Positions 36,700 through 56,310 of a stretch of DNA of 64,000 nt are shown here, in pieces. The notes under the pieces were generated by a model. It saw only the letters and a program-made list of their open reading frames with translations, was not told the origin of the DNA and searched no databases. The stretch's first letter is position 1. Each line of letters starts with the position of its first letter. The DNA is taken from IMG/VR virus record IMGVR_UViG_3300021400_001206, positions 11,782 through 75,781 of that record; one strand, written 5' to 3'. The DNA comes from a virus. Both the position numbers and the translations under genes were made by a program.

Positions 36700-37260
36700 A
36701 GTTTTGAAAATGAGCGCGGCATGCAAGCGTCCGCTGGATAGACGCTTGCATGCCGGTTTGGCACTTTAACGCGTTAAAGCGTTATACTTTAGCGCGGTGA
36801 AGCGTGACACTGTAACGCGGTGAAGTCCCGATTTGCCCTTGATTTCAGCGCTTCACCGCGCTAAAGCGTTAACGCGTTACCACTGCACTGCGTTAAAGTG
36901 TAGCACTTCACCGCGGTGAAGTGATGAAATCGGGGGCAAAATTGTTTTTGGCTGTTTTTCGTGCGGCGTCGCGGTGACACTTCACCGCGTTAAAGCACGA
37001 CACTTCAATGCGTTAAAGCACGACACTCCACTACGGTGAAGTGCTAAAGAAGCCAGCACTTCACCGCGTTAAAGTGCTAAAGAAGCCAACACTTCAGCGC
37101 GTTGAAGTGCTAACACATCATCACTTTAACACGTTGAAGTGTAACGATGTAAAGTGATACAACATTAATACATTAATATGTTAATACATTAATACATTAA
37201 TGTGTTAATAAGATAACACTTTAATGCGTTAAAGTGATAAAGAACTAAAGTAAAAAAAAT
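36700..37260. repeat. iteron-like repeat array: long hairpin, ~15 degenerate CACTTCACCGCGTTAAAGYG / CGCGGTGAAG units in both orientations, then TTAATACA AT-rich tandem repeats
   Basis: Hairpin GGCATGCAAGCGTC-cgctggata-GACGCTTGCATGCC at ~36717-36753. AACGCGTT and CCGCGG palindromes. GC-rich island in an AT-rich context. AT-rich TTAATACATTAATATGTTAATACATTAATACATTAATGTGTTAATAAG at ~37170-37215. Confidence 0.7.
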
Positions 37261-37283
37261 AAAAAATTTTTTCAAAAAAATGC

Positions 37284-37312
37284 TTGACAAAAGACTAACT
37301 CAATAGTATAAT
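37284..37312 (+). promoter_or_regulatory. sigma70 consensus promoter TTGACA-N17-TATAAT (first cassette promoter)
   Basis: TTGACAaaagactaactcaatagTATAAT. Confidence 0.6.
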
Positions 37313-37369
37313 AATATCAAGAGATGAGGGAAGAAACCTCACAGACCAAAAGAAAAGGAGATTAAAACA

Positions 37370-37549
37370 ATGACGACAATGGAACTGAGAATCAAGGAAA
37401 TGGAACTGAGTGCAATGGTAGATGTAGCTTACAACAGATTGATGGAAAATCCAAAAACCGATTTATCTTGGATGGATGCAGATGCCAAGTACAGAAAAGC
37501 CTTTAAGGAGTGGTCAAAAATTGCGGATGAGGCGCTCAAGCGCATCTGA
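37370..37549 (+). CDS. cassette small protein (59 aa)
   Basis: ATG after AAAAGGAGATTAAAACA. Followed by terminator AGCTCAACTgaaaAGTTGAGCT+T-run. Confidence 0.5.
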   Translation: MTTMELRIKEMELSAMVDVAYNRLMENPKTDLSWMDADAKYRKAFKEWSKIADEALKRI

Positions 37550-37589
37550 GAAAAAAAAGCTCAACTGAAAAGTTGAGCTTTTATTATTT

Positions 37590-37660
37590 GGCTAACGTGA
37601 ACAGCCGTTCGGGCACCGAAAAATTATACCACACAGCGATGCAGTTTGTCAAGACTAAAT
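37590..37660 (-). ncRNA. promoter-plus-GC-hairpin element (copy 1): minus-strand TTGACA-N18-TGgTATAAT firing into hairpin GTGCCCGAACGGCTGTTCACG
   Basis: Reverse complement of ATTATACCACA-N10-TTTGTCAA gives consensus -10/-35. Transcript would begin in the GC hairpin and end at the upstream bidirectional terminator. Confidence 0.4.
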
Positions 37661-37781
37661 TATTCGTCAAATGTAACAAAAAGAAACACCTAAAATTGGG
37701 CAAAATTATTTACTAAAACCTATTGACAAAAGAGGGCAAGCATGATATGATAGTATCATCAAAAGAAAGGAGAACAAAGAC

Positions 37782-38087
37782 ATGACAAGCAACCACTACA
37801 GTTCAGACAGAAAAAAGAGAGAAGAACTTATTCAAATGATCGGTTTAGGAACACCAGTAAAAGAAGTTAGAGTAGACAGAGGACATCGCAACGGCGCTGA
37901 AATCCACGTTATCAGCACAACAGCAATCATCACAATCTACAATGAGAGAACACACAAAATGATAACAAAACTTATTGCAAGACCAGGTCAGATAAAAAGA
38001 TACTACAACGCAAATGAAACAATTCCAACAGACCTGCTGAGACTTGCAAAAGAACACACAAAAGCTGGATATAATGAAGTAAGATAA
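37782..38087 (+). CDS. cassette protein (101 aa)
   Basis: Own promoter TTGACAaaagagggcaagcatgaTATGAT, RBS AAAGGAGAACAAAGAC, terminator GGCGGAAACGCC+T-run. Confidence 0.55.
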   Translation: MTSNHYSSDRKKREELIQMIGLGTPVKEVRVDRGHRNGAEIHVISTTAIITIYNERTHKMITKLIARPGQIKRYYNANETIPTDLLRLAKEHTKAGYNEVR

Positions 38088-38109
38088 AGGCGGAAACGCC
38101 TTTATTTTT

Positions 38110-38200
38110 TATATAACCGACTGACCCGAACGGTCGTTCGGGGCCCGCAAAATTATACCACATATGAGTGCGGTTTGTCAAGACTAAATTATTCGTCAAA
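38110..38200 (-). ncRNA. promoter-plus-GC-hairpin element (copy 2)
   Basis: AAAATTATACCACATATGAGTGCGGTTTGTCAAGAC reverse-complements to TTGACA-N18-TGgTATAAT. Hairpin CCCGAACGGTCGTTCGGG. Confidence 0.4.
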
Positions 38201-38319
38201 TGTGACAAAAAACAAATCCTATTTTTATGCAATATTTTTAATATAATTTTTAAAAAACTATTGACACCAAAAACCTAACATGATATACTTATATCATCAA
38301 GAGAGAGGAGAACAAAAAA

Positions 38320-38469
38320 ATGACAAACTTCATCAACTACATCGTAGGAAAAGACATTAGAGACAAGGACGACAAAATCCTGCACTACGCAATCTTAGCA
38401 TGGACATTCGCTGGTTCAATTCTTGGTATCGTTGTTATGACAGCTGAGTGCCTTGGATATATCGCATAA
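38320..38469 (+). CDS. cassette small membrane protein (49 aa)
   Basis: MTNFINYIVGKDIRDKDDKILHYAILAWTFAGSILGIVVMTAECLGYIA. Promoter TTGACAccaaaaacctaacatgaTATACT. Confidence 0.45.
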   Translation: MTNFINYIVGKDIRDKDDKILHYAILAWTFAGSILGIVVMTAECLGYIA

Positions 38470-38485
38470 ATAAAAAAAAATAAAA

Positions 38486-38520
38486 AAGGGCTTGACAAAA
38501 GCCAAGCCCTTTGATATAAT
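38486..38520 (+). promoter_or_regulatory. terminator-promoter module: hairpin AGGGCTTGacaaaaGCCAAGCCCT contains the -35 TTGACA; TTTGATATAAT follows
   Basis: Spacer 17 nt, extended -10 TGaTATAAT. The hairpin terminates the upstream gene. Confidence 0.6.
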
Positions 38521-38550
38521 AAAATCATCAAAGGAAAGGAAATAAAAAAA

Positions 38551-38820
38551 ATGAAAAATATTTATTTTGAAAGAATCAATAATTTAGTCCTTGCTCTTAA
38601 TGATAATGAAGTCCCCTGCAATGTAGAAAATTGTTATGACGGTTACAAAGTAACTTTTCCTTGGTGCAAAGGTGATGTAATTGCTCATTCTGGAATGTAC
38701 AACAATGAAGATTATGGATATACGGTGGAGTCTTTCGGGTTCCCGTGGGATGGATGTGATGTTACAGTGCTCAGTGTAAGAGAAGCCGTTGAATTAATCA
38801 CTGACTTCTATGGGGCTTAA
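38551..38820 (+). CDS. cassette protein (89 aa), paralog of 42558-42827
   Basis: MKNIYFERINNLVLALNDNEVPCNVENCYDGYKVTFPWC. About 65% identical to MKNNYFETIADLVLALCDNGIPCNVEDLYDGYKVTFPWC. Confidence 0.6.
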   Translation: MKNIYFERINNLVLALNDNEVPCNVENCYDGYKVTFPWCKGDVIAHSGMYNNEDYGYTVESFGFPWDGCDVTVLSVREAVELITDFYGA

Positions 38821-38832
38821 AAAAATTAAAAA

Positions 38833-38867
38833 TGGGGGTTGACAAATTTCAACCCCCATGATATAAT
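38833..38867 (+). promoter_or_regulatory. terminator-promoter module (GGGGGTTGacaaatttCAACCCCC + ATGATATAAT)
   Basis: Same architecture as 38486. Confidence 0.6.
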
Positions 38868-38899
38868 AAGACCATAGAAAAGAAAAGGAGATTAAAAAA

Positions 38900-39136
38900 A
38901 TGACATTTGAAATGACACTTGGACTTATCGCTCTTGGCTCCGCAATTGCAATGTTTGGTCTTTTCTTCCTTAGCATTTGCTTCTCAGCAAAAAAGGCTGA
39001 AAAAGATTTAAAGGAAAACTTAGAACACATGGCTAAAATCGATGAAGTGTTTAAGGAAAAAGCGAAAAGAGAAGGCTACGGAAACAGACTTGAAAACTTA
39101 GAAAACTTTAATATAAGTGACATTTGGAATTGCTAA
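38900..39136 (+). CDS. cassette membrane protein (78 aa), paralog of 42236-42472
   Basis: MTFEMTLGLIALGSAIAMFGLFFLSICFSAKKAEKDLKENLEHMAKIDEVF, ~88% identical to its paralog. Confidence 0.6.
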   Translation: MTFEMTLGLIALGSAIAMFGLFFLSICFSAKKAEKDLKENLEHMAKIDEVFKEKAKREGYGNRLENLENFNISDIWNC

Positions 39137-39210
39137 AAAAAAATAAAAAAGGCTTGACAAAAGTCAAGCCTTTTGATATACTTATATCATCAAGAGAGAG
39201 GAGAACAAAA

Positions 39211-39411
39211 ATGATAGTTCATTACATGGTAACAAGCGGAGACTGGTGCATGGGAGCTCATTCAAGATATAATTCTTATGAAGAAGCTAAAAAAGAATAT
39301 GAAGTATGCAAAGAAAACAGTATCTATGGTTCATTAAAAAAGGTTACTATCAAAGGCTTTTTAAAGAAAAACATCTTTATCGAGGAAATCGAAAGTTTTT
39401 CAATTAAGTAA
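39211..39411 (+). CDS. cassette protein (66 aa)
   Basis: ATG at 39211 after GAGAGAGGAGAACAAAA. The track ORF 39124 start lies in the promoter module. Confidence 0.5.
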   Translation: MIVHYMVTSGDWCMGAHSRYNSYEEAKKEYEVCKENSIYGSLKKVTIKGFLKKNIFIEEIESFSIK

Positions 39412-39479
39412 CATAAAGGGTTGACAACTCCAACCCTTTATGTTACAATAAAATCATCAAAAGAAAGGAAATAAAAAAA

Positions 39480-39662
39480 ATGACAACATTTGTAGTATGG
39501 GTAATAGATTCTGCGGGACGGCACTGGGAAGAAGAAACTTTCACTATTTATGAAGCCGCTTATAATTTTGGAGCTCATCTGGCGGAAGACATGTGTGCTG
39601 AAGAAGATTGGTATATTGAACGCCGTGTTGATGGACAGTTTGATTGTTATATAGGTTTTTAA
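39480..39662 (+). CDS. cassette acidic protein (60 aa)
   Basis: Promoter module GGGTTGACAACTCCAACCC + TGTTACAAT. Terminator ACTGGCAAAACGCCAGT + T7. Confidence 0.55.
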   Translation: MTTFVVWVIDSAGRHWEEETFTIYEAAYNFGAHLAEDMCAEEDWYIERRVDGQFDCYIGF

Positions 39663-39689
39663 AAAAATAAGAAACTGGCAAAACGCCAG

Positions 39690-39760
39690 TTTTTTTGTTA
39701 CCCCGAACGGTCGTTCGGGGTCCGAAAAATTATACCACGCGCGTCAGCCATTTGTCAACA
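39690..39760 (-). ncRNA. promoter-plus-GC-hairpin element (copy 3); predicted ~75-nt transcript hairpin-A7-hairpin-U tract
   Basis: Reverse complement TTGACAAATGGCTGACGCGCGTGGTATAAT. Transcript GGACCCCGAACGACCGTTCGGGGTAACAAAAAAACTGGCGTTTTGCCAGTTTCTTATTTTTTT. Confidence 0.45.
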
Positions 39761-39890
39761 AAAAAATATCCGTCAAAATGCACAAAGATCTCATCCTGAA
39801 ATTGTGCAATATTTTTTATAAAAAATTATTGACAAATATATATAATAGAGTTATAATTATATCATCAAAAGAAGAAAGGAAATAAAAAAA

Positions 39891-40052
39891 ATGACAACAA
39901 TCAACAACCTTCCGGCATACGCAAGCAACTATGAATACATGGTAGTAAGACTGATTGACGGTGAGTACTGGTTCTATGGTGCATATAGCAACGGTAAACG
40001 TGCTGAGAGTGTCGCTCTTGAAATCGGTGGAGAAATCATTCACAATAAATAA
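39891..40052 (+). CDS. cassette small protein (53 aa)
   Basis: Promoter TTGACAaatatatataatagagtTATAAT. RBS AAGAAAGGAAATAAAAAAA. Confidence 0.5.
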   Translation: MTTINNLPAYASNYEYMVVRLIDGEYWFYGAYSNGKRAESVALEIGGEIIHNK

Positions 40053-40057
40053 AAAAA

Positions 40058-40092
40058 TAAAAATGGGGGTTGACAAACCTCAACCCCCATGA
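40058..40092 (+). promoter_or_regulatory. terminator-promoter module (GGGGGTTGACAAACCTCAACCCCC + ATGATATAAT) driving an ORF-less unit
   Basis: Consensus hexamers with 17-nt spacer. Confidence 0.6.
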
Positions 40093-40107
40093 TATAATAA
40101 AATCATC

Positions 40108-40200
40108 AAAAGAAAGGAAGCAACAAAACAGAATAGGGTGGGCGGACGAGCCAAGCGCCGGTTGCTCATCTGAAATGCAGAAAGCTTCTAAAAAAATAAA
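40108..40200 (+). ncRNA. ORF-less cassette: candidate small RNA A (homolog of 45425-45510)
   Basis: GGGTGGGCGGACGAGCCAAGCGCCGGTTGCTCATCTGAAATGCAGAAAGCTTC aligns with GGTGGTCGGCAGAGCCTAGCGCCTATCGGCTATCTGAACAACGGAAAGTCACTTC, with a compensatory GAGC/GCTC versus AGCC/GGCT pairing. Longest ORF is only 18 codons. Confidence 0.4.
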
Positions 40201-40269
40201 AAAAGTAGTTGACAAACTACAAAACATCTGATATAATAAGACCATAGAAAAGAAAGAGAGGAAAACAAA

Positions 40270-40374
40270 ATGAAGTATATGATGTTTGAGGAACTGGTCA
40301 AGATGGTAGCATACAACGAAATCACCGAAGCGGAAGCTGAGGAAATCGCTGAAGAGCTTCTCAAAGATTTCTAA
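40270..40374 (+). CDS. cassette micro-protein (34 aa), paralog of 41747-41854
   Basis: MKYMMFEELVKMVAYNEITEAEAEEIAEELLKDF versus MMKYMMFEMLVEMVAKNELTEAEAEAVAEELLLPY. Confidence 0.5.
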   Translation: MKYMMFEELVKMVAYNEITEAEAEEIAEELLKDF

Positions 40375-40456
40375 AAAAAATTAAAAAGAGGGGTTGACAA
40401 ACCTCAGCCCCTCTGATATAATAGAATCATAGAAAAGAGAAAGAGAGGGAAACAAA

Positions 40457-40645
40457 ATGAAAATTTGGATTGTAAAAGGACACGCATACGCAACAAAAGA
40501 ACTTGCTAAAGAAGCTTGTGCTTATGCTAATTACTGTGAAGAGATGTGCGGTGGTTATGGTCTTTATGAAGTAACTGAAGCCGAAATTGAAACAGAAGTA
40601 AAAGAGAGAGTGCCAGAAAAATACAGAAAAATATATTGTAAATAA
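40457..40645 (+). CDS. cassette protein (62 aa)
   Basis: Promoter module GAGGGGTTGACAAACCTCAGCCCCTC + TGATATAAT. Confidence 0.55.
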   Translation: MKIWIVKGHAYATKELAKEACAYANYCEEMCGGYGLYEVTEAEIETEVKERVPEKYRKIYCK

Positions 40646-40689
40646 AATTAAAAAAGGGGTTGACAAACCTCAACCCCTTTGATATAATA

Positions 40690-40850
40690 AAGACATAAGG
40701 TAAGGGCAGTCAGAGAGGCTGACAGCAACACAAGGTTCGATTCCTTCCCCTACTTCGAAGGGTGTTTTAAAGCAAGTTCACCCAGACGAGGCGAGTAAGT
40801 TCTAAACTAAGTCGAAAATCTCCCACTCATATCAAAAACTTCTAAAAAAT
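40690..40850 (+). ncRNA. ORF-less cassette with tRNA-like T-arm (CAAGGTTCGATTCCTTC) and hairpin GTCAGagaggCTGAC; candidate structured RNA
   Basis: GGTTCGATTCC is the canonical tRNA T-arm sequence. A full cloverleaf could not be built by eye, so it is called tRNA-like only. Confidence 0.3.
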
Positions 40851-41111
40851 AAAAATAAAAGGTTGACAAACTTCAACCTATCTGATATAATAAAATCATC
40901 AAGAGAGAGGAACATAAAAAATGAGAGACCCGCCGTAAAAATCAACAAACTAAAGAAATGCGCCAGAGCCTGGGGACATTAGGGCGCGATGAATGCAGGC
41001 ACGGTGAGCGGACAAGTTCCCATCCCTCACCAAAAAAAAATAAAAAAAATAGTTGACAAATTCAGCTCGGTTTGATATAATAGAATCATCAAGAGAGAGG
41101 AGAACAAAAAC

Positions 41112-41303
41112 ATGACAACAATCATCATCGCCGAAGGAATCACAGCAACCATGACAAACCGCAAGGTAGAGCAGTACCGCAAGGCTATGGCGGCTACTGA
41201 GGCAAGTCGAAGCGTCTGGTGGGATGAACACTTCGACTGGTCGGACTGGGAAGAGTTCTGGAATGACGAGTTTGAAGCTTGGGAGAGATTTGTCAACTCC
41301 TGA
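41112..41303 (+). CDS. cassette acidic Trp-rich protein (63 aa)
   Basis: Promoter module at ~41048-41085. Protein ends WDEHFDWSDWEEFWNDEFEAWERFVNS. Confidence 0.55.
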   Translation: MTTIIIAEGITATMTNRKVEQYRKAMAATEASRSVWWDEHFDWSDWEEFWNDEFEAWERFVNS

Positions 41304-41304
41304 G

Positions 41305-41365
41305 TTTCGGCGCGCCGTGGGCGCACGGGCTTCGCCCGTTCAACCATTATAGCATATCCTCAGGG
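41305..41365 (-). ncRNA. promoter-plus-GC-hairpin element (copy 4)
   Basis: Reverse complement TTGACAAAACCCTGAGGATATGCTATAAT then GGCGCGCC-containing hairpin region. Confidence 0.4.
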
Positions 41366-41700
41366 TTTTGTCAATAGGCAAATTGCACAAAGATTTAGCA
41401 TAAAAATTTCCCATTTTTGTGCAATTTGCCTATTGACAAATCAGTGCAGATGTGCTTCTCGTCAAACTGCACAAAAATAACGCCCAAAACCACCTCATTT
41501 TTGTGCAATATTTCTACTTGACTTTTTTGAAGTTGTGCAAACTACACAAAAGAAGCGCTCTATTATTGTGCAGTTTGCACAAAAAAATTTTTTGTCAATA
41601 GTAAAAATAAAAAATAGCAAAATATACAAAATTTTTATGATCCTTTTGTGCAAAATGTAAAACCGCATAAAAATTAAAAAAATCATTTGACAAGTCTCTA
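41340..41700. promoter_or_regulatory. noncoding hub dense in TGTGCA/TGCACA dyads, with a perfect 25-bp inverted repeat TTTGTCAATAGGCAAATTGCACAAA ... TTTGTGCAATTTGCCTATTGACAAA
   Basis: At least 8 copies of TTGTGCAA/TTGCACAA within ~360 bp, including TGTGCAgttTGCACA. No ORF. Confidence 0.6.
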
Positions 41701-41746
41701 AAAAAGTAGTATTATTATATCAGAAACAAGAGAGGAGAACAAAAAA

Positions 41747-41854
41747 ATGATGAAGTACATGATGTTTGAAATGCTTGTAGAAATGGTCGCAAAAAACGAA
41801 CTGACTGAGGCTGAGGCTGAGGCGGTCGCTGAAGAACTTCTTCTTCCCTACTAA
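41747..41854 (+). CDS. cassette micro-protein (35 aa), paralog of 40270-40374
   Basis: See paralog. Promoter TTGACAagtctctaaaaaagtagTATTAT. Confidence 0.45.
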   Translation: MMKYMMFEMLVEMVAKNELTEAEAEAVAEELLLPY

Positions 41855-41934
41855 AAAAAATAAAAAAAGGGGGTTGACAAACCTCAACCCCTATAGTATA
41901 ATAAAGACAGATCAAAAGAAAAGGAGATAAAAAA

Positions 41935-42156
41935 ATGACAAAGGATTTCTACTACAACGTAAATGGTACAGAGTTTCATGATACAGTAGCTTTTGGACAG
42001 GCTTGGAAAGAAGCTAAGGCACTTGCTAGAGAAGAGCATTGCGGGATTGAAAGAACTGTAGTTTGTGGGGAAAACATTAGATACGAATTCTATGCAAAGG
42101 GCGGAATTTTCGTAGGCAATGAATTTAAAGCCGACTGGGATATGGAAATTCTTTAA
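41935..42156 (+). CDS. cassette protein (73 aa)
   Basis: Promoter module GGGGGTTGACAAACCTCAACCCC + TAGTATAAT. Confidence 0.55.
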   Translation: MTKDFYYNVNGTEFHDTVAFGQAWKEAKALAREEHCGIERTVVCGENIRYEFYAKGGIFVGNEFKADWDMEIL

Positions 42157-42235
42157 AAAAATAAAATAGGGGGTTGACAAATTCAATCCCCTATAGTATA
42201 ATAAGACCATAGAAAAGAAAGAGAGGAAATAAAAA

Positions 42236-42472
42236 ATGACATTCGAAATGACACTTGGACTTATTGCTTTTGGTTCTGCGGTTGTGATGTTCGGTTTCTT
42301 CCTTCTTAGTATTTACTTTTCAGCAAAAAAAGCTGAAAAAGATTTAAAAGAAAATTTAGAACATATGGCAAAAATTAATGAGGTGTTTGAAGAGAAGGCA
42401 AGAAGAGAAGGCTACGGAAACAGACTTGAAAATTTAGAAAATTTTAATATAAGCGACCTTTGGAATTGCTAA
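42236..42472 (+). CDS. cassette membrane protein (78 aa), paralog of 38900-39136
   Basis: See paralog. Confidence 0.6.
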   Translation: MTFEMTLGLIAFGSAVVMFGFFLLSIYFSAKKAEKDLKENLEHMAKINEVFEEKARREGYGNRLENLENFNISDLWNC

Positions 42473-42557
42473 AAAAAAATTAAAATGGGGGTTGACAAAT
42501 CAACCCCCGACTGATATAATAAAATCATCAAGAGAGAAAAAGAAAGGAAATAAAAAA

Positions 42558-50124: not shown

Positions 50125-50215
50125 TTGCCACTCTTTTTTCTATGGGGCGCGAGCCGTCGCCTCGCGCCGAAATTCCATTATACCATATCGCCGCACTTTT
50201 TGTCAATAGACAAAT
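50125..50215 (-). ncRNA. promoter-plus-GC-hairpin element (copy 9); predicted RNA GGAAUUUCGGCGCGAGGCGACGGCUCGCGCCCCAUAG-A6-GAGUGGCAAUUGCCACUCUUCUUAAUUUUUC
   Basis: Reverse complement CTATTGACAAAAAGTGCGGCGATATGGTATAATGGAAT. Terminates at the hairpin shared with the 49923 gene. Confidence 0.45.
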
Positions 50216-50328
50216 TAAACAAATTTTCAATTTAAAAAATCCCGAATTTTGTGCAATTTTTTCCTTGACGCAACCGCTAACATCTGATATACTTATATCA
50301 TCAACAGAGAGAAAGGAAAAGAAAAAAA

Positions 50329-50760
50329 ATGATTTATTGCGGTTATCAGGGTTGCGGAAAAAGCACATATTGTAGGGAACATCCCGACACTACAATTGAT
50401 TTAGATTCATCCATGTTCACTAAAAGAGCCGGATGGGAAGAAGATTATGTTATGATTGCTAAAGCACTCAGTGATTATGGCAATAAAAATGTTTTTATAT
50501 CCGCCCATAAAGTAGTTATTAATTATCTTATTGATAATCATATTGATTTTGAATTAATGATTCCTGTTCAAAATCCTAAAGCATGGCGTAATAGGTTAGA
50601 ATTTAGATATAATCTTTATCCAACTCAAGCAAATATGAACGCTATTCTTGATTTTGACAAGCATTATGAGGAAGATATGGCTTTTTATGAAACTGTTAAT
50701 TGTAAAAAGCATTATATCTCTGCAAGAGTTGTTACTGATATTTCTTGTTTTATTGAATAA
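50329..50760 (+). CDS. P-loop kinase-like protein (143 aa)
   Basis: Walker A GYQGCGKST at N-terminus. Nucleotide/polynucleotide kinase-like, specificity unknown. Confidence 0.45.
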   Translation: MIYCGYQGCGKSTYCREHPDTTIDLDSSMFTKRAGWEEDYVMIAKALSDYGNKNVFISAHKVVINYLIDNHIDFELMIPVQNPKAWRNRLEFRYNLYPTQANMNAILDFDKHYEEDMAFYETVNCKKHYISARVVTDISCFIE

Positions 50761-50824
50761 AAAGTATTGACAAATAGCAAATAATAAAGTATAATATATA
50801 TAACATCAAAAAAGGAGATAAAAA

Positions 50825-51004
50825 ATGGAAAAGAAAATGTATGTACTGGTTAATGGCGTGGGAGACCCTGCATGTTTTTACAAGCTTACACAGGAAGAGC
50901 GTTTTGTAATTGAAGACATTCTTTATGAAACAGGAACGGACTATGAACTTCGCTCTATTGAAGATATTGAATTCACAGAAATTAAAGGAGAAAAATATGA
51001 ATAA
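50825..51004 (+). CDS. cassette protein (59 aa; coordinates +/-1)
   Basis: MEKKMYVLVNGVGDPACFYKLTQEERFV.... Promoter TTGACAaatagcaaataataaagTATAAT. Confidence 0.45.
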   Translation: MEKKMYVLVNGVGDPACFYKLTQEERFVIEDILYETGTDYELRSIEDIEFTEIKGEKYE

Positions 51005-51455
51005 AGAAATCTTAAAAGCCATTGAAGACAAACAGAAAAAGCATCCTTTCCGTGACTGGTGGAATAGTGACGATAGTTTGAAAGCAAGAAGAATTATCTT
51101 CTTCCCCATTTGGATTTATGTTGTAATTAGCGATAAAATCAAAAAATGGAATTATGACCGCACAACTTGGGATGAAAAAAGAGCTGATGAAATTCTTACT
51201 TATTACATCCCCCGAACAAGTGATTGGAACCCCGATGATAAAACCTTTTTCTTTTATGATAATGGAATGGGGTGGAGCATAGGACTTGCAAAAAAATATT
51301 TAAAAATAAAAGACCGTCTTTTTTGGAGAAAATTCAATTGGGCAATTGAAGAATATCTTAATAATAAATTTGAATTAGAAGGGTTTGAAAAAGAAGTTAT
51401 AAGCACTCGTTCTTACTACACTGGTACAGAAATTATTTTTAAACAAAAGTCTTGA
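50997..51455 (+). CDS. cassette protein (152 aa), co-transcribed (ATGA overlap)
   Basis: MNKEILKAIEDKQKKHPFRDWWNSDD.... The track ORF 50910 start is probably too far upstream. Confidence 0.5.
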   Translation: MNKEILKAIEDKQKKHPFRDWWNSDDSLKARRIIFFPIWIYVVISDKIKKWNYDRTTWDEKRADEILTYYIPRTSDWNPDDKTFFFYDNGMGWSIGLAKKYLKIKDRLFWRKFNWAIEEYLNNKFELEGFEKEVISTRSYYTGTEIIFKQKS

Positions 51456-51510
51456 CAAATAATAATTTCTGTATTATAATTAAATCATCAAAAAGAAAGG
51501 AAATAAAAAA

Positions 51511-51741
51511 ATGACAAAAGAAATTGAATTTATGGGATACACTCTTACAGACGATGAATGTGAAGCACTTCATAAATGTTTAATGGAAATTAAAGAAAAG
51601 AAAAGACATGACCAGTTGATTCAGGCATGTAAAACTAACATCTCCTTTCAGATTAGTGACGCTATTACCTTAATCGGTCTTGCTGAAACTAAAAGGCTTG
51701 TAAGAGAATTGAATCGGGAACTGAGAGGATATGAGGATTAA
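51511..51741 (+). CDS. cassette protein (76 aa)
   Basis: Promoter TTGACAaataataatttctgtaTTATAAT. Confidence 0.55.
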   Translation: MTKEIEFMGYTLTDDECEALHKCLMEIKEKKRHDQLIQACKTNISFQISDAITLIGLAETKRLVRELNRELRGYED

Positions 51742-51754
51742 GAGGGCTTATACC

Positions 51755-51850
51755 CTCTTTTTTTTGATGGCGCGCCAGCCATCGGACTGGCGCGAAAAAT
51801 CCATTATAACATATCCCGCATGTTTTTGTCAAGCATTTTTTGCAAAAAAT
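51755..51850 (-). ncRNA. promoter-plus-GC-hairpin element (copy 10)
   Basis: Reverse complement GCTTGACAAAAACATGCGGGATATGTTATAATGGAT. Hairpin CGCGCCAGtccgatggCTGGCGCG (contains GGCGCGCC). Confidence 0.45.
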
Positions 51851-52039
51851 TTGCACAAATTTTTTTCCCAAAATTTGTGCAAATTTCCAACTTGTATTTT
51901 GTGTCGTTATCCCTTATAATGATAATTGTCAAGAGAAAAAGCTAAAACAAAAGAAACAAAAAAAATTAAAAAACCTCTTGACAACTCAAACATAATCATG
52001 TATAATAAAGACATAAGATAAAGGAAAGGAAAAAACAAC

Positions 52040-52756
52040 ATGGACAGACGGAAAAATTATTACCTTACACTTGACACTGAAACTTGTGGGAGCCTTGGCG
52101 AACCGCTTGTATATGACATTGGCTATACTATCCATGATAAAAAGGGTGTTATTTATGAAAGACGCTCTTATGTTGTAAGAGAAATTTTTTATGGTGAGTG
52201 GAAGAAAATGAGAACCGCTTACTATGCTGAAAAGATTCCCTCATATAAAGAGGGTATCAAGATAGGTAAGTGGACTGTAAAATCTTTTTGGGAAATTCGC
52301 AAGGAAATTTTTTCTCTTATGAGAAAGTATAATATAAAAGCCGTGGTTGCCTATAATGCGGGTTTTGACACAAGGGCACTAAATTCAACTCTTAACTATC
52401 TGAGCAAATTTGATGAAAAGCAGACCTTTTTCAATGAAAAAACTGTTATTTGGTGTTCATGGGGTATGAGCTGTCAGACAATTTTCAAACAGAAAACATT
52501 CTTTAAACTTGCCAATCGTGAAGCATGGGTCAGTGAAGCAGGGAATGTAAAAACATCGGCTGAAATTGCCCACCGCTATCTTAATAAAGAACTTGATTTT
52601 GAGGAAGCCCACACCGCCCTTGAAGATGCACTAATTGAAACATCTATCTTTGCTAAGTGCATGGCACAGCATAAGAAAATGGATAAAAATATTTTAGTTA
52701 TGCCGTGGCGGATTCCTCAACCTGATTTTAAAGCGTTTCTTGCGGAATGTGCCTAA
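52040..52756 (+). CDS. DEDDh-family 3'-5' exonuclease (DnaQ/RNase T-like), 238 aa
   Basis: Exo I LTLDTETCG, Exo II YNAGFD, Exo III AHTALEDALIE (H-x4-D). Confidence 0.7.
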   Translation: MDRRKNYYLTLDTETCGSLGEPLVYDIGYTIHDKKGVIYERRSYVVREIFYGEWKKMRTAYYAEKIPSYKEGIKIGKWTVKSFWEIRKEIFSLMRKYNIKAVVAYNAGFDTRALNSTLNYLSKFDEKQTFFNEKTVIWCSWGMSCQTIFKQKTFFKLANREAWVSEAGNVKTSAEIAHRYLNKELDFEEAHTALEDALIETSIFAKCMAQHKKMDKNILVMPWRIPQPDFKAFLAECA

Positions 52757-52838
52757 AATAAAAAATTAAAAATAGGGATTGACAAAACAATCCCTATTTG
52801 ATATAATAATATCATCAAGAAAAGAAAGGATAAAAAAA

Positions 52839-53006
52839 ATGAAAAAAGAACTGTATGTATTGTATCTACCTTGTTCAGAACCTAGATTTTTGAATCTTAC
52901 TAAGGGAGAAGCAAATTTGGTTGAAGAAATTTTGGATTTAGTTTCTGTTGAAGTAGAATTTGAGAAAGTAGCCAATTTTGATATTTTTGAAGTAATGGGG
53001 GATTAA
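52839..53006 (+). CDS. cassette acidic protein (55 aa)
   Basis: Promoter module AGGGATTGACAAAACAATCCCT + TTGATATAAT. Confidence 0.5.
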   Translation: MKKELYVLYLPCSEPRFLNLTKGEANLVEEILDLVSVEVEFEKVANFDIFEVMGD

Positions 53007-53009
53007 AAA

Positions 53010-53186
53010 ATGGAAACTAGAATGACAATGTTTATTATTTTTGTAATTGTTATGTTTATTGGTCACATTGCAGATTGCTACACTAAATGGTATGACGATA
53101 TATGGGAGCCGTATTTTAGTAAGGCTGTACAGGCTTCTTGCTTCCGCTTGGCGTTCATCTGTATCGTGTATTTTATCTTTATGTAA
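53010..53186 (+). CDS. cassette membrane peptide (~58 aa)
   Basis: METRMTMFIIFVIVMFIGHIADCY.... Followed by terminator AAATCCGcatatGCGGATTT + T-run. Confidence 0.4.
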   Translation: METRMTMFIIFVIVMFIGHIADCYTKWYDDIWEPYFSKAVQASCFRLAFICIVYFIFM

Positions 53187-53249
53187 ACCAATTAATAAAA
53201 TCCGTATATGCGGATTTTATTTTTTCTCTTGACACTTTTACACTTTAGT

Positions 53250-53345
53250 GCGCTAAAGTCGCCCCGCGGGGGCTCGGGCAAAGCCCGAAAATTCCATTAT
53301 ACCACATCGCTCGATTTTTGTCAATAGACAAAATAAACAAAAATC
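53250..53345 (-). ncRNA. promoter-plus-GC-hairpin element (copy 11)
   Basis: Reverse complement GTCTATTGACAAAAATCGAGCGATGTGGTATAATGGAA. Hairpins CGGGCtttGCCCG and GCCCCCGCGGGGC. Confidence 0.45.
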
Positions 53346-53761
53346 TCACTCTAAAAATCCCATAATTTGTGCATAATCCCATATTGATTTTTTAAAAAAT
53401 TTTTAGTATAATAGTTATACAAGGTAAGGGAAAAACACCTTGAAGGGTCAAGAAAAAAAATAAAAAAAGTTCTTGACAAATAAAAAAACCTATGTTATAA
53501 TAAATACATAAGGTAAGGAAAGTCAAAGAAGTCAACCACTAAAAATTTATTTTATCTCGGTGACAATGCAAACAACCCCTAACTAAACTTAGGATAAAAC
53601 AACCCCAGAGCGCAAAAATCCGTTATAATAAGAGGCTGGTTACGGATAAAAAGAGATAAAAAAAGTTAAAAAAGTTCTTGACAAACAAAAGACCTTATGT
53701 TATAATAATAACATAGAAAACAAACAAACAACAATTTTTACAAAAGAAAGAGGTGTCTAGT

Positions 53762-54103
53762 ATGACAAAGAGAGAAATGTTCGTAGCAATCCGTGAAGTA
53801 GTTGTTGACAATGCAGATATGGTCGCTTTTATTGACAAGGAAATTGCACTTCTTGATAAGAAGAGAAATGCTCCTAAGAAGCTGACCGACACCCAGCTTG
53901 AGAATGAGCGTTGCAAGGCTGACATTATTGCCTATCTGATTGAGGTAGACCAGCCGAAAAACATCTCTGAAATTCAGGCGGATGTTGCTTCTGTCGCTAA
54001 GTTCTCAAATCAGAGAATTACACACATCCTGTCTGCGCTTGTCGCTGATAGTAAGGTAGTAAAGACTTACGTTAAGAAGAGACCGTATTTCTCAATCGCA
54101 TAA
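53762..54103 (+). CDS. cassette winged-helix-like protein (113 aa), paralog of 45933-46289
   Basis: See paralog. Upstream are two ORF-less promoter units (53480-53750). Confidence 0.55.
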   Translation: MTKREMFVAIREVVVDNADMVAFIDKEIALLDKKRNAPKKLTDTQLENERCKADIIAYLIEVDQPKNISEIQADVASVAKFSNQRITHILSALVADSKVVKTYVKKRPYFSIA

Positions 54104-54215
54104 GTTTCCCAGTGGGGGAAGTAAAAAAACTTCCCCCACTTTGAAAAAAATGCTTGACAAAAGCTAGGGAATACGATATAATAAGACCATAGAAAAGAAA
54201 AGAGAGGATTCAAAC

Positions 54216-54608
54216 ATGAAATACGATTTTAATGGAAAGACAATCAATATTCCCGATGCTGAACTTGAAAAAAGCATGAAACTCCTGGGGCTGTCAAAAG
54301 AAGAAGCTATTGAGATGTACCTTGAGGATGAGGGATACCTTGAAAATGAGGAAGTGGAAGAGCTGACCAAAAAAGCTAAGGCTAATAAAATCAATCATGA
54401 AGCCAAAGCTGATAAGCCTAGAAAGGCGGTCAAGCGTGAGCGGAAACCTGATGTTGAAAAGGAAAAAATTATTGAAATCCTTGCAAATTGTCTGAAAAAT
54501 GAGGGTTTTGTAGCGGAAATTACAAATAAATCCAAGCTGATTGAGTTCTCTGTCGGTGAAAATCACTACAAACTGGATTTAGTGAAGAAAAGACCGCCGA
54601 AAAAGTAA
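54216..54608 (+). CDS. cassette protein (130 aa), Lys/Glu-rich C-terminus
   Basis: Promoter TTGACAaaagctagggaatacgaTATAAT. Confidence 0.55.
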   Translation: MKYDFNGKTINIPDAELEKSMKLLGLSKEEAIEMYLEDEGYLENEEVEELTKKAKANKINHEAKADKPRKAVKRERKPDVEKEKIIEILANCLKNEGFVAEITNKSKLIEFSVGENHYKLDLVKKRPPKK

Positions 54609-54689
54609 ATAATCTGACATTTTAAGTCAGTTTTTCGTCAAAATGACGAAAAACTGACTATTTTTTTGTTAAAAATTACTACTTGACAA

Positions 54690-54750
54690 CCATATTCTGA
54701 TATGATATAATGGTTGGCCCGTCGCGGAGCGCCGGGCGCCGCAATTTGTC
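54690..54750 (+). ncRNA. promoter-plus-GC-hairpin element, plus-oriented copy (TTGACAaccatattctgatatgaTATAAT then GGCCCGTCGCGGAGCGCCGGGCGCCGC)
   Basis: Same architecture as the minus-strand copies but in direct orientation. Confidence 0.4.
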
Positions 54751-54862
54751 AAGATGTAATATTTAACAAATTTTTCACCGCACTTTTGTATAAAATGCCA
54801 GGTTGACATTTTTCCTAAAATTTATTATAATTTATACATAAGATAAAGAAAGGAAGTAAACA

Positions 54863-55099
54863 ATGAAAACAGAAACTATTACAATGGATGGTATTCAAAA
54901 TTGGATTTTAACGAAATATGAAACCGCATGTGTCTTTAAAAAAGTTGATTCAACCACAAGTATAGAAACTCTTATAAACGGCTGTCAAGGTGTAATTGAT
55001 TTTATTTCTAGCTGTCATCCTGATTGGCGTAATGATTTGCTTAGTTGGTGGTATGAAAAAATACTTCCTAAATTCAAAAAATTAGAAAAAAATGCTTGA
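54863..55099 (+). CDS. cassette protein (78 aa)
   Basis: Promoter TTGACAtttttcctaaaatttatTATAAT, identical to the one before 47276. Confidence 0.55.
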   Translation: MKTETITMDGIQNWILTKYETACVFKKVDSTTSIETLINGCQGVIDFISSCHPDWRNDLLSWWYEKILPKFKKLEKNA

Positions 55100-55313
55100 C
55101 AAACCATTTATTAGCTGTTATAATAAATATATCAAATGAAAGGAAATAAAAATATGGATTGGGAAAAAATTTGTCATGCTGTTCAGAATCAAGCTTTTGT
55201 AATTAAATATTGTCTTTTTATAAATATTATAAGAAGTATTTCAAATGAAGATTTAGAGTATCTTTTGGTAGAAATGGAATGTGAAATAGAAAATAAAGAA
55301 AGGAAATAAAAAA

Positions 55314-55586
55314 ATGGATGAAAAAATTGTAAACATTTACTTTGATGAACCCGCCCTTCCCTCAACAACTATGTTTCACTTTATGTACTCTTTAAGACCT
55401 TTTATTATGGCTGAGGGTCCAAGAGCAAGTGATGGGGTTATTTTTATAGATTTAACAAATGGATGGGCTTATACTTGGGATGACCTTGCACTTTCTGATT
55501 TATACTTTTATGGTGCGGATGGCAAGGAAAGAGATGATAATGACGATGAATTCTATGGTGTTGCGGTGATTGGTGAAATTTGGTAA
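55314..55586 (+). CDS. cassette protein (90 aa)
   Basis: Follows a 51-aa ORF at ~55134-55289. RBS AAGAAAGGAAATAAAAAA. Confidence 0.5.
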   Translation: MDEKIVNIYFDEPALPSTTMFHFMYSLRPFIMAEGPRASDGVIFIDLTNGWAYTWDDLALSDLYFYGADGKERDDNDDEFYGVAVIGEIW

Positions 55587-55599
55587 GGAAGGTGATAAA

Positions 55600-55788
55600 A
55601 TGAAGAAAGCAAATATAACTTTTATGACATATGATTTTTTTGAAGCTGTTATCCCTGATGACGTCTATGAAACAAAAAATTGTAGAAAAGCTATTGAAAT
55701 AGCTCAAAAACAAATGTTTGAAGAACTGGGGTATAATTGCACTGACTATGATGATGTTGAAATTGACTTTGTGGATGAAGAGGATTAA
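55600..55788 (+). CDS. cassette acidic protein (62 aa)
   Basis: MKKANITFMTYDFFEAVIPDD...DDVEIDFVDEED. Confidence 0.45.
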   Translation: MKKANITFMTYDFFEAVIPDDVYETKNCRKAIEIAQKQMFEELGYNCTDYDDVEIDFVDEED

Positions 55789-55791
55789 TAA

Positions 55792-55962
55792 ATGACAGAA
55801 AAAGAAATATTCTTAAATATGTTGAAAAGAGTTTGTGGTTATGAACCTGGTGATTCTTTATTTTACTGGGAAGAGGGAGACACTGTTGTTATTACTAATG
55901 AACAGGATGAAATAACTAATTTTAATTTTGATGATAAAGGTAATTTAATTTGGTATTATTAA
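55792..55962 (+). CDS. cassette protein (56 aa)
   Basis: Followed by terminator GGGCGGAAACGCCC + T-run. Confidence 0.45.
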   Translation: MTEKEIFLNMLKRVCGYEPGDSLFYWEEGDTVVITNEQDEITNFNFDDKGNLIWYY

Positions 55963-56014
55963 TTTTTCAATAAAGGGCGGAAACGCCCTTATTTTTATTT
56001 TTTTTAAAATAATC

Positions 56015-56125
56015 TTGACAAACTACATTATTATGTGGTATAATCGTCGGCCCGCTGGCCTCCAGCCGAGGGCCGCTCCGCCACTCCAGACCCCTTAGGC
56101 GACTTTTTTCCAGAACATGGCCGAT
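56015..56125 (+). ncRNA. promoter-plus-GC-hairpin element, plus-oriented copy with CCCCTTAGGC repeats and U-tract terminator
   Basis: CTTGACAaactacattattatgtgGTATAAT then GTCGGCCCGCTGGCCTCCAGCCGAGGGCCGCTCCGCC...CCCCTTAGGCGACTTTTTT. Confidence 0.45.
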
Positions 56126-56310
56126 TGGTTTTGCCGCCCCATTTTTCCCAAAATTCGACCCCCTTAGGCCGAATCCCGCTAGAACAATTCTATTTGAAAT
56201 TTTAAAAAATTTTTGTTATAATTTAAAAAAACACTTTTTTAAAACCACTTGATTTTTTTAAAAATTTTTGATATAATATAATTACAATAATAAAGGAGAG
56301 AAAAAAATAT

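Follow-up and report, generated by a model that had tools for sequence, protein, structure and literature searches.

What kind of gene region is the 19-kb run of tiny, separately promoted ORFs in this phage genome, and how are its genes gained and lost? The window, a stretch of 64,000 nucleotides, comes from an uncultivated rumen phage and belongs to a clade of ~135-kb, TAG-recoded (code 15) phages from rumen and gut. Late genes contain 1-11 in-frame TAGs each, read there as sense. The lineage encodes PolIII-alpha and a portal distantly related to those of large Firmicutes siphoviruses and phAss-1, and is best explained as a tailed phage of rumen or gut Firmicutes. The preliminary description had noted neither TAG as sense in late genes nor a tRNA-Lys. 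The favored reading, to which we give a probability of roughly 0.75, is that the array is an early-gene, hyperplastic region built of composite regulatory modules of the PeSL (promoter-early stem-loop) type, known from the T4-like phages RB49/phi1, T4/PST and KVP40/nt-1 (Arbiol et al., 2010, PMC2839356; Comeau et al., 2014, PMC4122927).

Rightward modules and their genes

Perfect TTGACA-N16-18-TATAAT sites number 51 in the window, against 0.14 expected from shuffles. Allowing at most one mismatch, or two if TG is present, the array has 50 + strand promoters, about 1 per 380 bp, of which 49 have a 17-nt spacer. Forty-one drive small ORFs and nine drive short non-coding units, the latter absent from the preliminary description. 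The ORFs (34-238 aa, median about 63 aa) begin with ATGACA in 17 of 47 cases, and the distance from the -10 end to ATG is mostly 28-33 nt, clustered at 30 ± 3 nt. The recount thus bears out a consensus promoter for the small ORFs, their size (given as 35-240 aa) and the many ATGACA starts; also real are the iteron block before the array (36757-37244) and all four diverged paralogue pairs (38551/42558, 38900/42236, 40270/41747 and 45933/53762; 63-87% aa identity). One gene per unit was an overstatement, as eight or nine ORFs lie in 2-4-gene operons, and the GC rise, described as marked, is modest (0.32-0.39 vs 0.28-0.34 in the flanks). The same 47 ORFs end in TAA (n = 40) or TGA (n = 7) and contain no TAG; going by the consensus from which promoters, terminators and early status are assigned, the array would be the TAG-free early region of a code 15 phage. 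Few of its proteins have matches, and these are nucleotide-metabolism enzymes; a winged-helix protein makes up one widespread family.

Each module opens with an A-rich tract containing the stop codon of the preceding gene, continues with a near-consensus -35 box, the 17-nt spacer and an often TG-extended -10 box, and closes with a ~30-nt A/G-rich leader and a strong Shine-Dalgarno (SD) sequence before ATG. The leader had been called near-invariant, which does not hold: three families (22, 14 and 5 of 50 modules) and 9 others were found, with a mean pairwise module identity of 53% vs 29% for background. A GC hairpin occurs in 19 of the 50 modules, its 5' arm ending in TTGA of the -35 box (dG -8 to -19.5, mean -16 kcal/mol), and its stem varies in sequence while pairing is kept. 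Since these fused hairpins lack a + strand U-tract, they may be weak attenuators for rightward transcription. With about 10 further canonical + strand terminators, a recognisable terminator is found in about 60% of units and in roughly 40% there is none, so the claim of one per cassette stands only in part. Among the relatives' unique perfect promoters the hairpin accompanies about 40 of 1001; together with the 19 of 50 here, this means that most promoters of the clade are not full PeSLs.

Leftward units and segment boundaries

Inside the array lie 11 perfect minus-strand promoters that the preliminary description had overlooked. Behind each come a GC hairpin and then a shared terminator; B4, the exception, lacks its own terminator, and its predicted transcript would therefore enter g41112 antisense. 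The 11 units divide the array into 12 segments (table). Besides the GC hairpin and the perfect leftward promoter, a boundary element comprises a bidirectional terminator, paired TTTGTGCAA boxes and, facing rightward, a weaker promoter. The predicted leftward RNAs, about 55-70 nt, would be convergent with the preceding rightward gene at its 3' end, stopping at the shared terminator; their 5' GC hairpin is conserved in structure and variable in sequence. Our best guess is that the element combines a short convergent RNA with a box-regulated, delayed class of rightward promoter.

Table. Predicted features of the array, in window coordinates.
Feature	Position	Strand	Content
Whole array	37284..56222	+	50 sigma70/sigmaA-type promoters, 49-50 small ORFs (41 with own promoter), 9 non-coding units, 11 leftward promoter-hairpin units
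Segment 1	37284..37582	+	P37284, g37370 (59 aa); bidirectional terminator 37555-37582
B1	37548..37652	-	leftward promoter 37652-37623 (N18, TGTGGTATAAT), GC hairpin, terminator common with g37370
Segment 2	37723..38110	+	P37723, g37782 (101 aa); canonical terminator near 38089-38106
B2	38085..38181	-	leftward promoter 38181-38152, hairpin CCCCGAACGACCGTTCGGG, shared terminator
Segment 3	38261..39692	+	P38261-g38320 first; four hairpin (PeSL-type) modules P38492-g38551, P38839-g38900, P39154-g39211, P39421-g39480; terminator 39672-39692
Duplicated two-cassette block	38472..39199	+	89-aa ORF, then 78-aa ORF
B3	39666..39758	-	leftward promoter 39758-39729, hairpin, shared terminator
Segment 4	39829..41303	+	ORF units P39829-g39891, P40209-g40270, P40394-g40457, P41053-g41112; non-coding P40070 and P40660 (T-loop-like GGTTCGATTCC); P40863 (mini-ORF MRDPP*, then an RNA)
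B4	41298..41374	-	leftward promoter 41374-41346, two GC hairpins
TTTGTGCAA box cluster	41375..41686	alternating	7 copies, <=1 mismatch
Segment 5	41687..42849	+	P41687-g41747; hairpin modules P41874-g41935, P42174-g42236, P42492-g42558; terminator 42826-42849
Diverged copy of two-cassette block	42151-42808		cassette order reversed
B5	42826..42918	-	leftward promoter 42918-42890, two GC hairpins, shared terminator
Segment 6	42977..44172	+	box-type P42977-g43036; hairpin modules P43221-g43280 plus g43459, P43856-g43915; P43613-g43680 (P43613 within last 10 codons of g43459); terminator 44157-44172
B6	44150..44246	-	
Segment 7	44305..45251	+	P44305-g44373; hairpin modules P44627-g44695, P44885-g44952; terminator 45223-45251
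B7	45223..45323	-	
Segment 8	45383..48665	+	three non-coding: about 45383, P45524 (mini-ORF MRDPPT*), P45669; P45856-g45933 (winged-helix family), then tRNA-like element 46331-46403 and tRNA-Lys 46407-46482; P46638-g46697/g46891; P47215-g47276; hairpin modules P47477 (non-coding), P47643-g47704/g47944, P48214-g48268/g48397; terminator 48650-48665
B8	48647..48739	-	
Segment 9	48808..50135	+	box-type P48808-g48867; P49044-g49104 (5'-deoxynucleotidase); P49550-g49610; P49856-g49923; terminator 50114-50135
B9	50104..50206	-	
Segment 10	50265..51759	+	box-type P50265-g50329 (P-loop protein); P50767-g50825/g50997; P51452-g51511; terminator 51740-51759
B10	51740..51832	-	
Segment 11	51978..53221	+	P51978-g52040 (DnaQ-like exonuclease, 238 aa); hairpin module P52779-g52839, plus ORF 53010-53186; terminator 53194-53221
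B11	53194..53324	-	
Segment 12	53473..56222	+	P53473 (non-coding); P53678-g53762 (winged-helix paralogue); P54154-g54216; terminator 54625-54659; P54683 (rightward GC-hairpin unit); P54803-g54863; P55096 driving four ORFs (55154-55962); terminator 55973-55990; P56015 (rightward GC-rich RNA); P56194-g56311

Cassette turnover and competing explanations

Dense promoters are a clade-wide trait, reaching 33 perfect sites per 20 kb among 79 related loci, where 735 promoter-proximal ORFs make up 347 families, singletons accounting for 248. Compared with the closest relative (144 kb, portal 89% identical), 27 of 48 cassettes are common (42-100% aa identity), the other 21 are missing and the order of blocks differs, as expected from the cassette-level variation proposed earlier. 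A strain 99.7% identical over 1.5 kb has the same promoter with a different ORF behind it. P43613 has a different partner in each of three lineages: g43680, a g44952-like ORF and an 89-aa paralogue. The three-lineage alignment places the switch within AGGAAATAAAAAAATGA, the conserved SD-spacer-ATG of the module, in line with the earlier proposal that modules serve as portable homology. This is the one junction resolved to a chimeric module; a second is ambiguous. Ends of long homology blocks fall inside modules in 55% of cases vs 28% expected, which is not independent proof, since gene-wise replacement predicts breakpoints at gene boundaries and conserved modules extend alignments. Recurring ~50 times here, and present in every relative, the 80-95-nt module offers short homology for recombination, and sequence comparison indicates that the modules double as sites of crossover at which related phages exchange genes.

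An ordinary early or host-takeover cluster, in which modules look alike through selection for maximal-strength promoters and ribosome-binding sites and genes turn over by generic illegitimate or short-homology recombination, is an unlikely competitor. Constraint on the consensus hexamers, A-tracts and SD could by itself yield the 53% mean identity, SPO1, whose early module gives 26 small genes strong promoters and strong ribosome-binding sites, is a precedent, and most promoters in relatives lack the hairpin. However, homology exceeds these functional cores, any module matching many others in HSPs of 80-95 nt at 75-86% identity; unrelated cassettes have leader families in common, and the resolved junction lies exactly in shared module sequence, with one promoter reused for three ORFs. 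That same junction, in generic SD-ATG homology, speaks against an integron-like site-specific system with a dedicated recombinase, which is very improbable even though promoter-associated cassettes stand in tandem and orphan genes are many: beyond promoter and leader there is no conserved attC-like site, and inspection of the array-flanking ORFs in the 64 kb (of about 135 kb) found no obvious integrase or recombinase signature. Repeats can mislead assemblers, but an assembly or chimera artefact is for practical purposes refuted by contigs from independent ENA, JGI and NCBI assemblies that match at 99.98-100% identity over 20 kb, 7.6 kb and 2.8 kb and by dozens of relatives with the same architecture.

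A narrower question is the direction in which the fused hairpins act. It is possible, though we doubt it, that hairpins and A-runs mainly stop leftward (antisense) transcription, coming from the 11 internal promoters and the leftward genes at 57-60 kb, and are not terminators for rightward genes. On the minus strand they score as canonical terminators, with the upstream A-run as U-run, and the + strand tail has only 3-5 U in 12 nt; yet all nine G.U pairs in the window stems fit + strand RNA only, the relatives' stems show 5 G.U vs 1 A.C, and in RB49/phi1 a stem-loop of this same design equalled rrnB T1 as a terminator. The two functions are not mutually exclusive.

Under the favored reading of PeSL-type modules, host primary-sigma RNA polymerase would fire all modules simultaneously on infection, and the small genes, which the standard code suffices to read, would each be expressed strongly and independently. 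Hairpins would attenuate read-through out of the upstream unit and, with the upstream A-run, would form a canonical terminator against leftward transcription. On the evidence of sequence comparison, recombination between modules deletes, inserts, duplicates and swaps cassettes.

Comparison with known systems

The host-takeover module of the Bacillus phage SPO1 holds 26 genes in a 12.4-kb terminal region (Stewart et al., 1998, summarised in PMC6873191). Both it and the array are clusters of small early genes in a large Firmicutes phage, in which every gene or short operon comes with a host-type promoter and a ribosome-binding site, both strong. The SPO1 module has about 12 promoters in 12-13 kb, so the array is denser; module-mediated shuffling is absent from the SPO1 description, and no sequence similarity between the two was found. 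Morons of lambdoid phages, reportedly described by Juhala et al. in 2000, are promoter-gene-terminator units. Like the array cassettes, they are autonomous transcription units with their own promoter and terminator, acquired as a unit. A moron, however, is inserted singly among the late genes of a temperate phage and expressed from the prophage, whereas the array units would make up a whole early region and have one regulatory module in common. The putative leftward units recall lambda OOP RNA, a short antisense RNA convergent with cII, in that a short RNA converges on a rightward gene; unlike OOP they occur in eleven copies, overlap a terminator or 3' UTR and not coding sequence, and carry the variable 5' GC hairpin.

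The closest match is with PeSLs, whose promoter activity, terminator activity and mini-circles have been demonstrated experimentally (PMC2839356; PMC4122927), whereas for the array modules such activities are predicted. Both have an AT-rich tract with the upstream stop codon, a near-perfect TTGACA-N17-TATAAT, then SD and ATG, and a Gn-loop-Cn stem-loop between or over the -35/-10 boxes. Both occur in about 50 copies per genome in orphan-gene-rich regions, show indels or replacements between relatives with junctions in the motif, and have the same proposed role for the composite promoter/stem-loop module. In contrast to PeSLs, which lie in several scattered regions, the array is one co-oriented 19-kb tract; its hairpin is fixed on the -35 box and limited to its minority of modules, nine modules drive non-coding units, and the leftward promoter-hairpin units and TTTGTGCAA boxes are not described in the PeSL papers. 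As the modules match the published PeSL definition, the organisation, earlier taken to match no described system, is already a described kind. The array is a PeSL-type organisation in a lineage unrelated to T4-like phages, one with PolIII-alpha, the portal affinities given above and code 15, and module-mediated gene swapping is a principle so far described only in the T4-like phages.

Promoter modules and terminators of the array

A scan of the window for perfect TTGACA-N16-18-TATAAT sites identified 51, against 0.14 expected from dinucleotide-preserving shuffles, and 48 of them fall at 37.28-56.05 kb. The consensus sigma70 promoters claimed in the preliminary description of this small-gene array are thereby borne out. 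Within the 19-kb array itself, 36 perfect sites lie on the plus strand. When one mismatch is allowed, or two if TG precedes the -10 box, the rightward promoters number 50, with a 17-nt spacer in 49. An SD and an ATG lie downstream of 41, and the ATG stands at a tightly clustered distance, mostly 28-33 nt, from the -10 box. Upstream of the -35 box lies an A-tract (consensus aaaaaaa.taAAAaaa) in which the preceding gene has its stop codon. The module made up of promoter, leader and SD-to-ATG stretch has a mean identity of 53% over 79 nt, compared with 29% for background; its leader, described as near-invariant, belongs instead to one of three families (22, 14 and 5 of the 50) or to others outside them.

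The array ORFs are as small as had been described (34-238 aa, median ~63 aa), 17 of 47 start with the noted ATGACA, and all four proposed paralogue pairs are real, with 63-87% amino acid identity. Stop codons are TAA (40) or TGA (7), with no others. The proposed layout of one gene per transcription unit fits the 41 promoter-led ORFs but not another 8-9 ORFs, which have no promoter of their own and lie in operons of two to four genes; nine promoters drive short units without an ORF of at least 30 aa. The array is richer in GC than its flanks, yet by only 3-6 points, so that "markedly higher" was an overstatement.

A GC-rich hairpin of 7-13 bp (dG -8 to -19.5 kcal/mol) is present in 19 of the 50 modules, always over the -35 box, and in none of the other 31. 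The TTGA of the -35 box forms the end of the 5' arm of this fused hairpin, and the 3' arm stops just short of the TG-extended -10 box; such modules have 10-16 A per 18 nt of upstream A-tract. Stem sequences vary between copies with the pairing kept. The nine G.U pairs in the window stems fit folding of the rightward RNA only, and the stems of relatives, where fused hairpins occur in only ~40 of 1001 unique promoters, contain five G.U pairs versus one A.C. Downstream of the fused hairpin the rightward strand has only 3-5 U per 12 nt. Downstream on the leftward strand comes the complement of the A-rich tract, and a terminator scan calls the hairpin a canonical terminator in this direction. Another ~10 canonical rightward terminators are present, nearly all bidirectional. 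Together with the 19 fused hairpins, these give a terminator-like structure to roughly 60% of units, and it is for these, not for the rest, that the idea of a terminator for every cassette holds.

Coordinates of individual features in the window
Feature	Position	Strand	Observation
Promoter near PolIII-alpha gene	1346-1374	+	Perfect, host-type, outside the array; ~200 nt upstream of the gene
TAG-as-sense stretch	6180-8504
Promoter at late-block end	11582-11554	-	Perfect, host-type, outside the array; ahead of leftward gene 10967-11524
TAG-as-sense stretch	11588-33541	-
Sigma-factor-like gene (PHROG 5767)	32393-33589	-	Five in-frame TAGs, behind perfect host-type promoter 33589-33561
Repeat block	36757-37244		Dense; a ~20-nt quasi-palindromic CACTTCACCGCGTTAAAGTG-like motif in at least ~15 copies
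Duplicated two-cassette block	38472-39199; 42151-42808		Order exchanged: 89 aa-78 aa vs 78 aa-89 aa
Conserved non-coding units	40106-40195; 40696-40850; 40897-41040; 47513-47625		Promoter-driven, no ORF
Mini-ORF MRDPP*	40921-40938		Starts a promoter-driven unit
Box-rich stretch	41375-41686		300 bp, non-coding, flanked by a leftward unit and promoter P41687; seven TTTGTGCAA boxes that alternate in orientation, in inverted pairs at a distance of ~33 bp
Promoter P43613	43613-43641		Perfect; within the final ten codons of ORF g43459 (…MLDKMKEAGYN*)
Mini-ORF MRDPPT*	45589-45609		Starts a promoter-driven unit
ORF g45933	45933-46289		Winged-helix family
tRNA-like element	46331-46403		Good acceptor stem and T arm; 3-nt 'anticodon' loop
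tRNA-Lys(UUU)	46407-46482		Adjoins the tRNA-like element
ORF g53762	53762-54103		Winged-helix family
Rightward promoter + GC-hairpin units	54683-54760; 56015-56190	+	Conserved in relatives, also in loci L009, L010, L011, L094, L107, L143 and L146
TAG-as-sense stretch	58001-58756

After the repeat block ahead of the array, which may serve as an origin or as a platform for protein binding, come an AT-rich ATTAATAC repeat and, directly downstream, the first array promoter. At P43613, coding DNA doubles as the next cassette's promoter.

Genetic code and cassette exchange among relatives

The leftward gene block at 11.5-33.5 kb, whose products include terminase, portal, capsid, tail proteins and a sigma-like factor, is open only with TAG as a sense codon. 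In-frame TAGs number 1-11 per structural, packaging or tail gene and three in NrdD; the PolIII-alpha gene and all array genes have none. No suppressor tRNA was found in the window. The host-type promoter and five TAGs of the sigma-like gene suggest that its mRNA could be made early and translated only once TAG suppression is available, a possible timer of late transcription.

IMG/VR contains abundant relatives, on contigs of 107-144 kb with portals 62-90% identical; their sample numbers point mostly to rumen and in some cases to human gut. Among complete deposited genomes phAss-1 is the nearest, with a portal of 38% identity; it is placed in the 'Caudoviricetes code 15 clade', and its host is predicted to belong to the Clostridia. 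Portals related at 24-38% identity are those of phAss-1, Enterococcus 140-kb phages, Sundance and SPbeta-like phages; the relatives beyond phAss-1 are large phages of Enterococcus, Brevibacillus, Staphylococcus and Bacillus. The TAG-free array set against late genes with in-frame TAGs, together with the hosts and code 15 of the relatives, argues that the array is probably the standard-code early region of a code-15 Firmicutes phage. An assembly artefact is excluded by contigs 99.98-100% identical in independent assemblies. No match to the array was found by megablast among 50,697 phage records, and phAss-1 has no perfect promoter in 41 kb, its paper being silent on promoters. A generic promoter-pattern scan of IMG/VR for the spread of such arrays gave mostly single matches among the matches listed. 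Among 79 loci centred on a homologue of ORF g49104, dense co-oriented perfect promoters are a trait of the clade, with up to 33 per 20 kb.

Cassettes are gained, lost and reordered between these relatives, as the preliminary description had anticipated. The nearest 144-kb relative shares 27 of 48 cassettes at 42-100% amino acid identity and lacks 21, and in it the 47.3-48.7 kb block is swapped with that at 49.1-51.7 kb. The 735 promoter-proximal ORFs of the sampled loci fall into 347 families, of which 248 are singletons. Natural variants are many and include strains >99% identical that differ by single cassettes, so that metagenomes allow direct measurement of where crossovers lie and how often cassettes are exchanged.

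Modules of the window give many 80-95-nt matches to the nearest relative at 75-86% identity, any module to many, and longer syntenic blocks often run from -19 in one module to the leader of a different one. Across 11 relatives, 55% of block ends lie in modules versus the 28% of the region that modules cover, an enrichment that is not proof, since replacement gene by gene would alone produce some of it. The strongest evidence comes from the only junction resolved to the nucleotide, that at P43613. Over 42200-43684 a contig matches the window at 99.66% identity and then continues into a different ORF. The ORF behind P43613 is g43680 in the window, g44952-like in a second lineage and an 89-aa paralogue in a third, and in every lineage the switch lies within the common AGGAAATAAAAAAATGA SD-ATG stretch. 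Such joints are chimeric modules, and these bear the signature of inter-module recombination. The alignment of a second deletion junction (45373/49064 vs locus L175) was ambiguous. The duplicated two-cassette block, with its order exchanged, would be an expected product of inter-module recombination rather than of simple tandem duplication.

Family searches with the ten largest cassette proteins gave one Pfam match and five PHROGs matches, mostly to families of unknown function. A family hit or a motif hints at function in only three of the ten, namely a 5'-deoxynucleotidase, a DnaQ-like exonuclease and a P-loop protein. PDB sequence searches with g45933 and g54216 found nothing.

The proposed working of the array starts from what the DNA itself displays, namely the anatomy and repetition of the modules, the TAG-free array, cassette polymorphism and a chimeric junction at nucleotide level. 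Host primary-sigma polymerase would recognize every module right after infection, with the A-tract acting as a putative UP element. Translation would be high owing to the leader, unstructured and rich in purines, and to the strong SD; hairpins would limit read-through both ways, and the products would be early accessory proteins. For low-GC Gram-positive bacteria, the array would offer a ready natural collection of strong, insulated promoters, ribosome-binding sites and terminators. It also cleanly divides a code-15 phage genome between a presumed early part in the standard code and a late part that depends on TAG.

Leftward units and non-coding cassettes

Eleven perfect leftward promoters, missed in the preliminary description, lie inside the array. 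Their spacer of 18 or 17 nt ends in TGTGGTATAAT, and downstream of each comes a GGAATTTCG-like sequence followed by one or two GC hairpins. In 10 of the 11 these are followed by the preceding rightward gene's terminator, so that RNAs of ~55-70 nt are predicted. A per-sequence stem search found a stem score of at least 8 in 63% of 52 unique copies across relatives, compared with 1.4% of shuffles. The hairpin of these leftward units is conserved in structure and not in sequence: the stems differ and are almost purely Watson-Crick. RNAalifold found no structure on a MAFFT alignment of the 52 hairpins because the stems are out of register in it, and G.U pairs were uninformative as to the functional strand (0 G.U vs 3 A.C in 434 pairs).

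A TTTGTGCAA box lies 8-10 nt upstream of the -35 box in both the leftward promoter and a weaker divergent rightward promoter, and 15 of the 16 exact copies in the window are in the array. The leftward units divide the array into 12 segments, each running from a box-type promoter through 1-7 cassettes to a terminator, leftward hairpin and leftward promoter. The rightward versions of the promoter and GC-hairpin unit are followed by TTGTCAA, TTGCACAA and TTGTATAA boxes and a second promoter class (TTGACATTTTTCCTAAAATTTATTATAAT).

No cassette family is more widespread in the clade than that of g45933 and g53762, which counts 78 members across the sampled loci, with 2-3 copies inside the array and up to three per locus (L007, L009, L010, L011, L094, L146). 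It has an unusually long leader (48-55 nt) and a predicted C-terminal winged-helix domain of ArsR/SmtB type (pLDDT 85; fold matches weak, E = 5e-3 to 5e-2). The protein may be guessed to be a candidate binder of the TTTGTGCAA boxes.

The four conserved non-coding units are 96.8-99.1% identical in the lineage of L094 and L175, where the neighbouring protein cassettes are much more diverged. None of the four matched Rfam, and one contains a T-loop-like GGTTCGATTCC. Single-sequence folding of the nine non-coding units gave z-scores from -2.6 (47513-47625) to +1.4. Rfam searches of the whole array and two sub-regions at gathering and permissive thresholds recovered tRNA-Lys only; the remaining hits were miRNA-type, at chance level and on palindromes. 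The two nearly identical mini-ORFs each have a good ribosome-binding site upstream and a 70-110 nt RNA after. Asp-Pro-Pro ahead of a stop codon is a context that slows translation termination. The tRNA-like element and tRNA-Lys come after g45933 without a promoter of their own; ARAGORN called the former at relaxed threshold only and with low score, and its other relaxed calls look spurious.

Several explanations were weighed and dropped for want of support. The leftward hairpins resembled type I-C CRISPR repeats, and their apparent common end proved to be the -10 box. Antitermination sites of nut/put type did not agree with loops that are not conserved, and support was lacking for the promoters as multiple replication primers. 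We consider it rather unlikely, if conceivable, that the array is a two-tier regulatory system of a hitherto undescribed kind. PeSL-type tandem cassettes (PeSLs are the promoter-early stem-loops of T4-like phages) would be nested in the 12 segments, each with the weaker rightward promoter at its start and a bidirectional terminator plus the leftward RNA unit at its end, and with paired TTTGTGCAA boxes. Here the winged-helix proteins could bind the boxes and time or shut off the array, and the convergent RNAs and non-coding cassettes would be new regulatory RNAs, maybe tied to the switch to TAG-reading late expression. The leftward structured-RNA units, box-regulated divergent promoters and highly conserved non-coding cassettes could be new.

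Comparison with known systems

An integron-type cassette array would be expected to have an integrase and attC/attI sites. Apart from promoter and leader, no attC-like repeat was found in the array, and inspection of the ORFs adjoining it revealed none that is recombinase-like; within this scope the reading is very unlikely. Morons and lambda OOP RNA are looser analogies. Among Firmicutes phages the closest analogue for many small, strong-promoter early genes is the SPO1 host-takeover module (PMC6873191), also a small-gene cluster with strong host-type promoters and ribosome-binding sites; the likeness here is at sequence level only, and PHROGs gave no similarity to SPO1 proteins. The SPO1 type is further marked by its place in the terminal redundancy and by products that shut off host processes; the window covers no genome ends.

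The array matches the published description of PeSLs almost item by item, so the earlier statement that no described system fits was incorrect. Shared features are the AT-rich tract with the upstream stop codon, the near-perfect TTGACA-N17-TATAAT promoter and the terminal SD and ATG. A Gn-loop-Cn stem-loop between or over the promoter boxes belongs to the PeSL description as well, and one of its five classes overlaps the -35 box (Arbiol et al., 2010, PMC2839356; Comeau et al., 2014, PMC4122927); the array has such a stem-loop in the 19 hairpin modules and not in the other 31, so that on this point the likeness is partial. For PeSLs, promoter and terminator activity and excised mini-circles have been demonstrated by experiment. 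Further likenesses are ~50 copies per genome, association with orphan genes and hyperplastic regions, and inter-copy recombination as a source of indels, for which the array offers its single resolved junction.

PeSLs have been described in T4-like phages as the sole lineage (PMC2839356; PMC4122927), and the present phage is not T4-like, as seen from its PolIII-alpha, late sigma-like factor, distant portal relatives and code 15. PeSLs being a functional class and not a homology family, this mismatch limits "same lineage" and not "same kind", and the resemblance between unrelated lineages is one of convergence. Composite promoter-terminator modules as recombination handles would then not be peculiar to T4-like phages of Gram-negative bacteria, having arisen independently in a TAG-recoded gut and rumen Firmicutes phage clade. 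The PeSL idea may thus be extended to a more general rule for large lytic phages that renew accessory genes without an integrase. The array also differs in that its modules all stand in a single co-oriented array, that hairpins occur in a minority of them, and that its leftward promoter-hairpin units, paired boxes and non-coding cassettes are without counterpart in the PeSL papers. The array is real and striking, and its underlying principle is already known.
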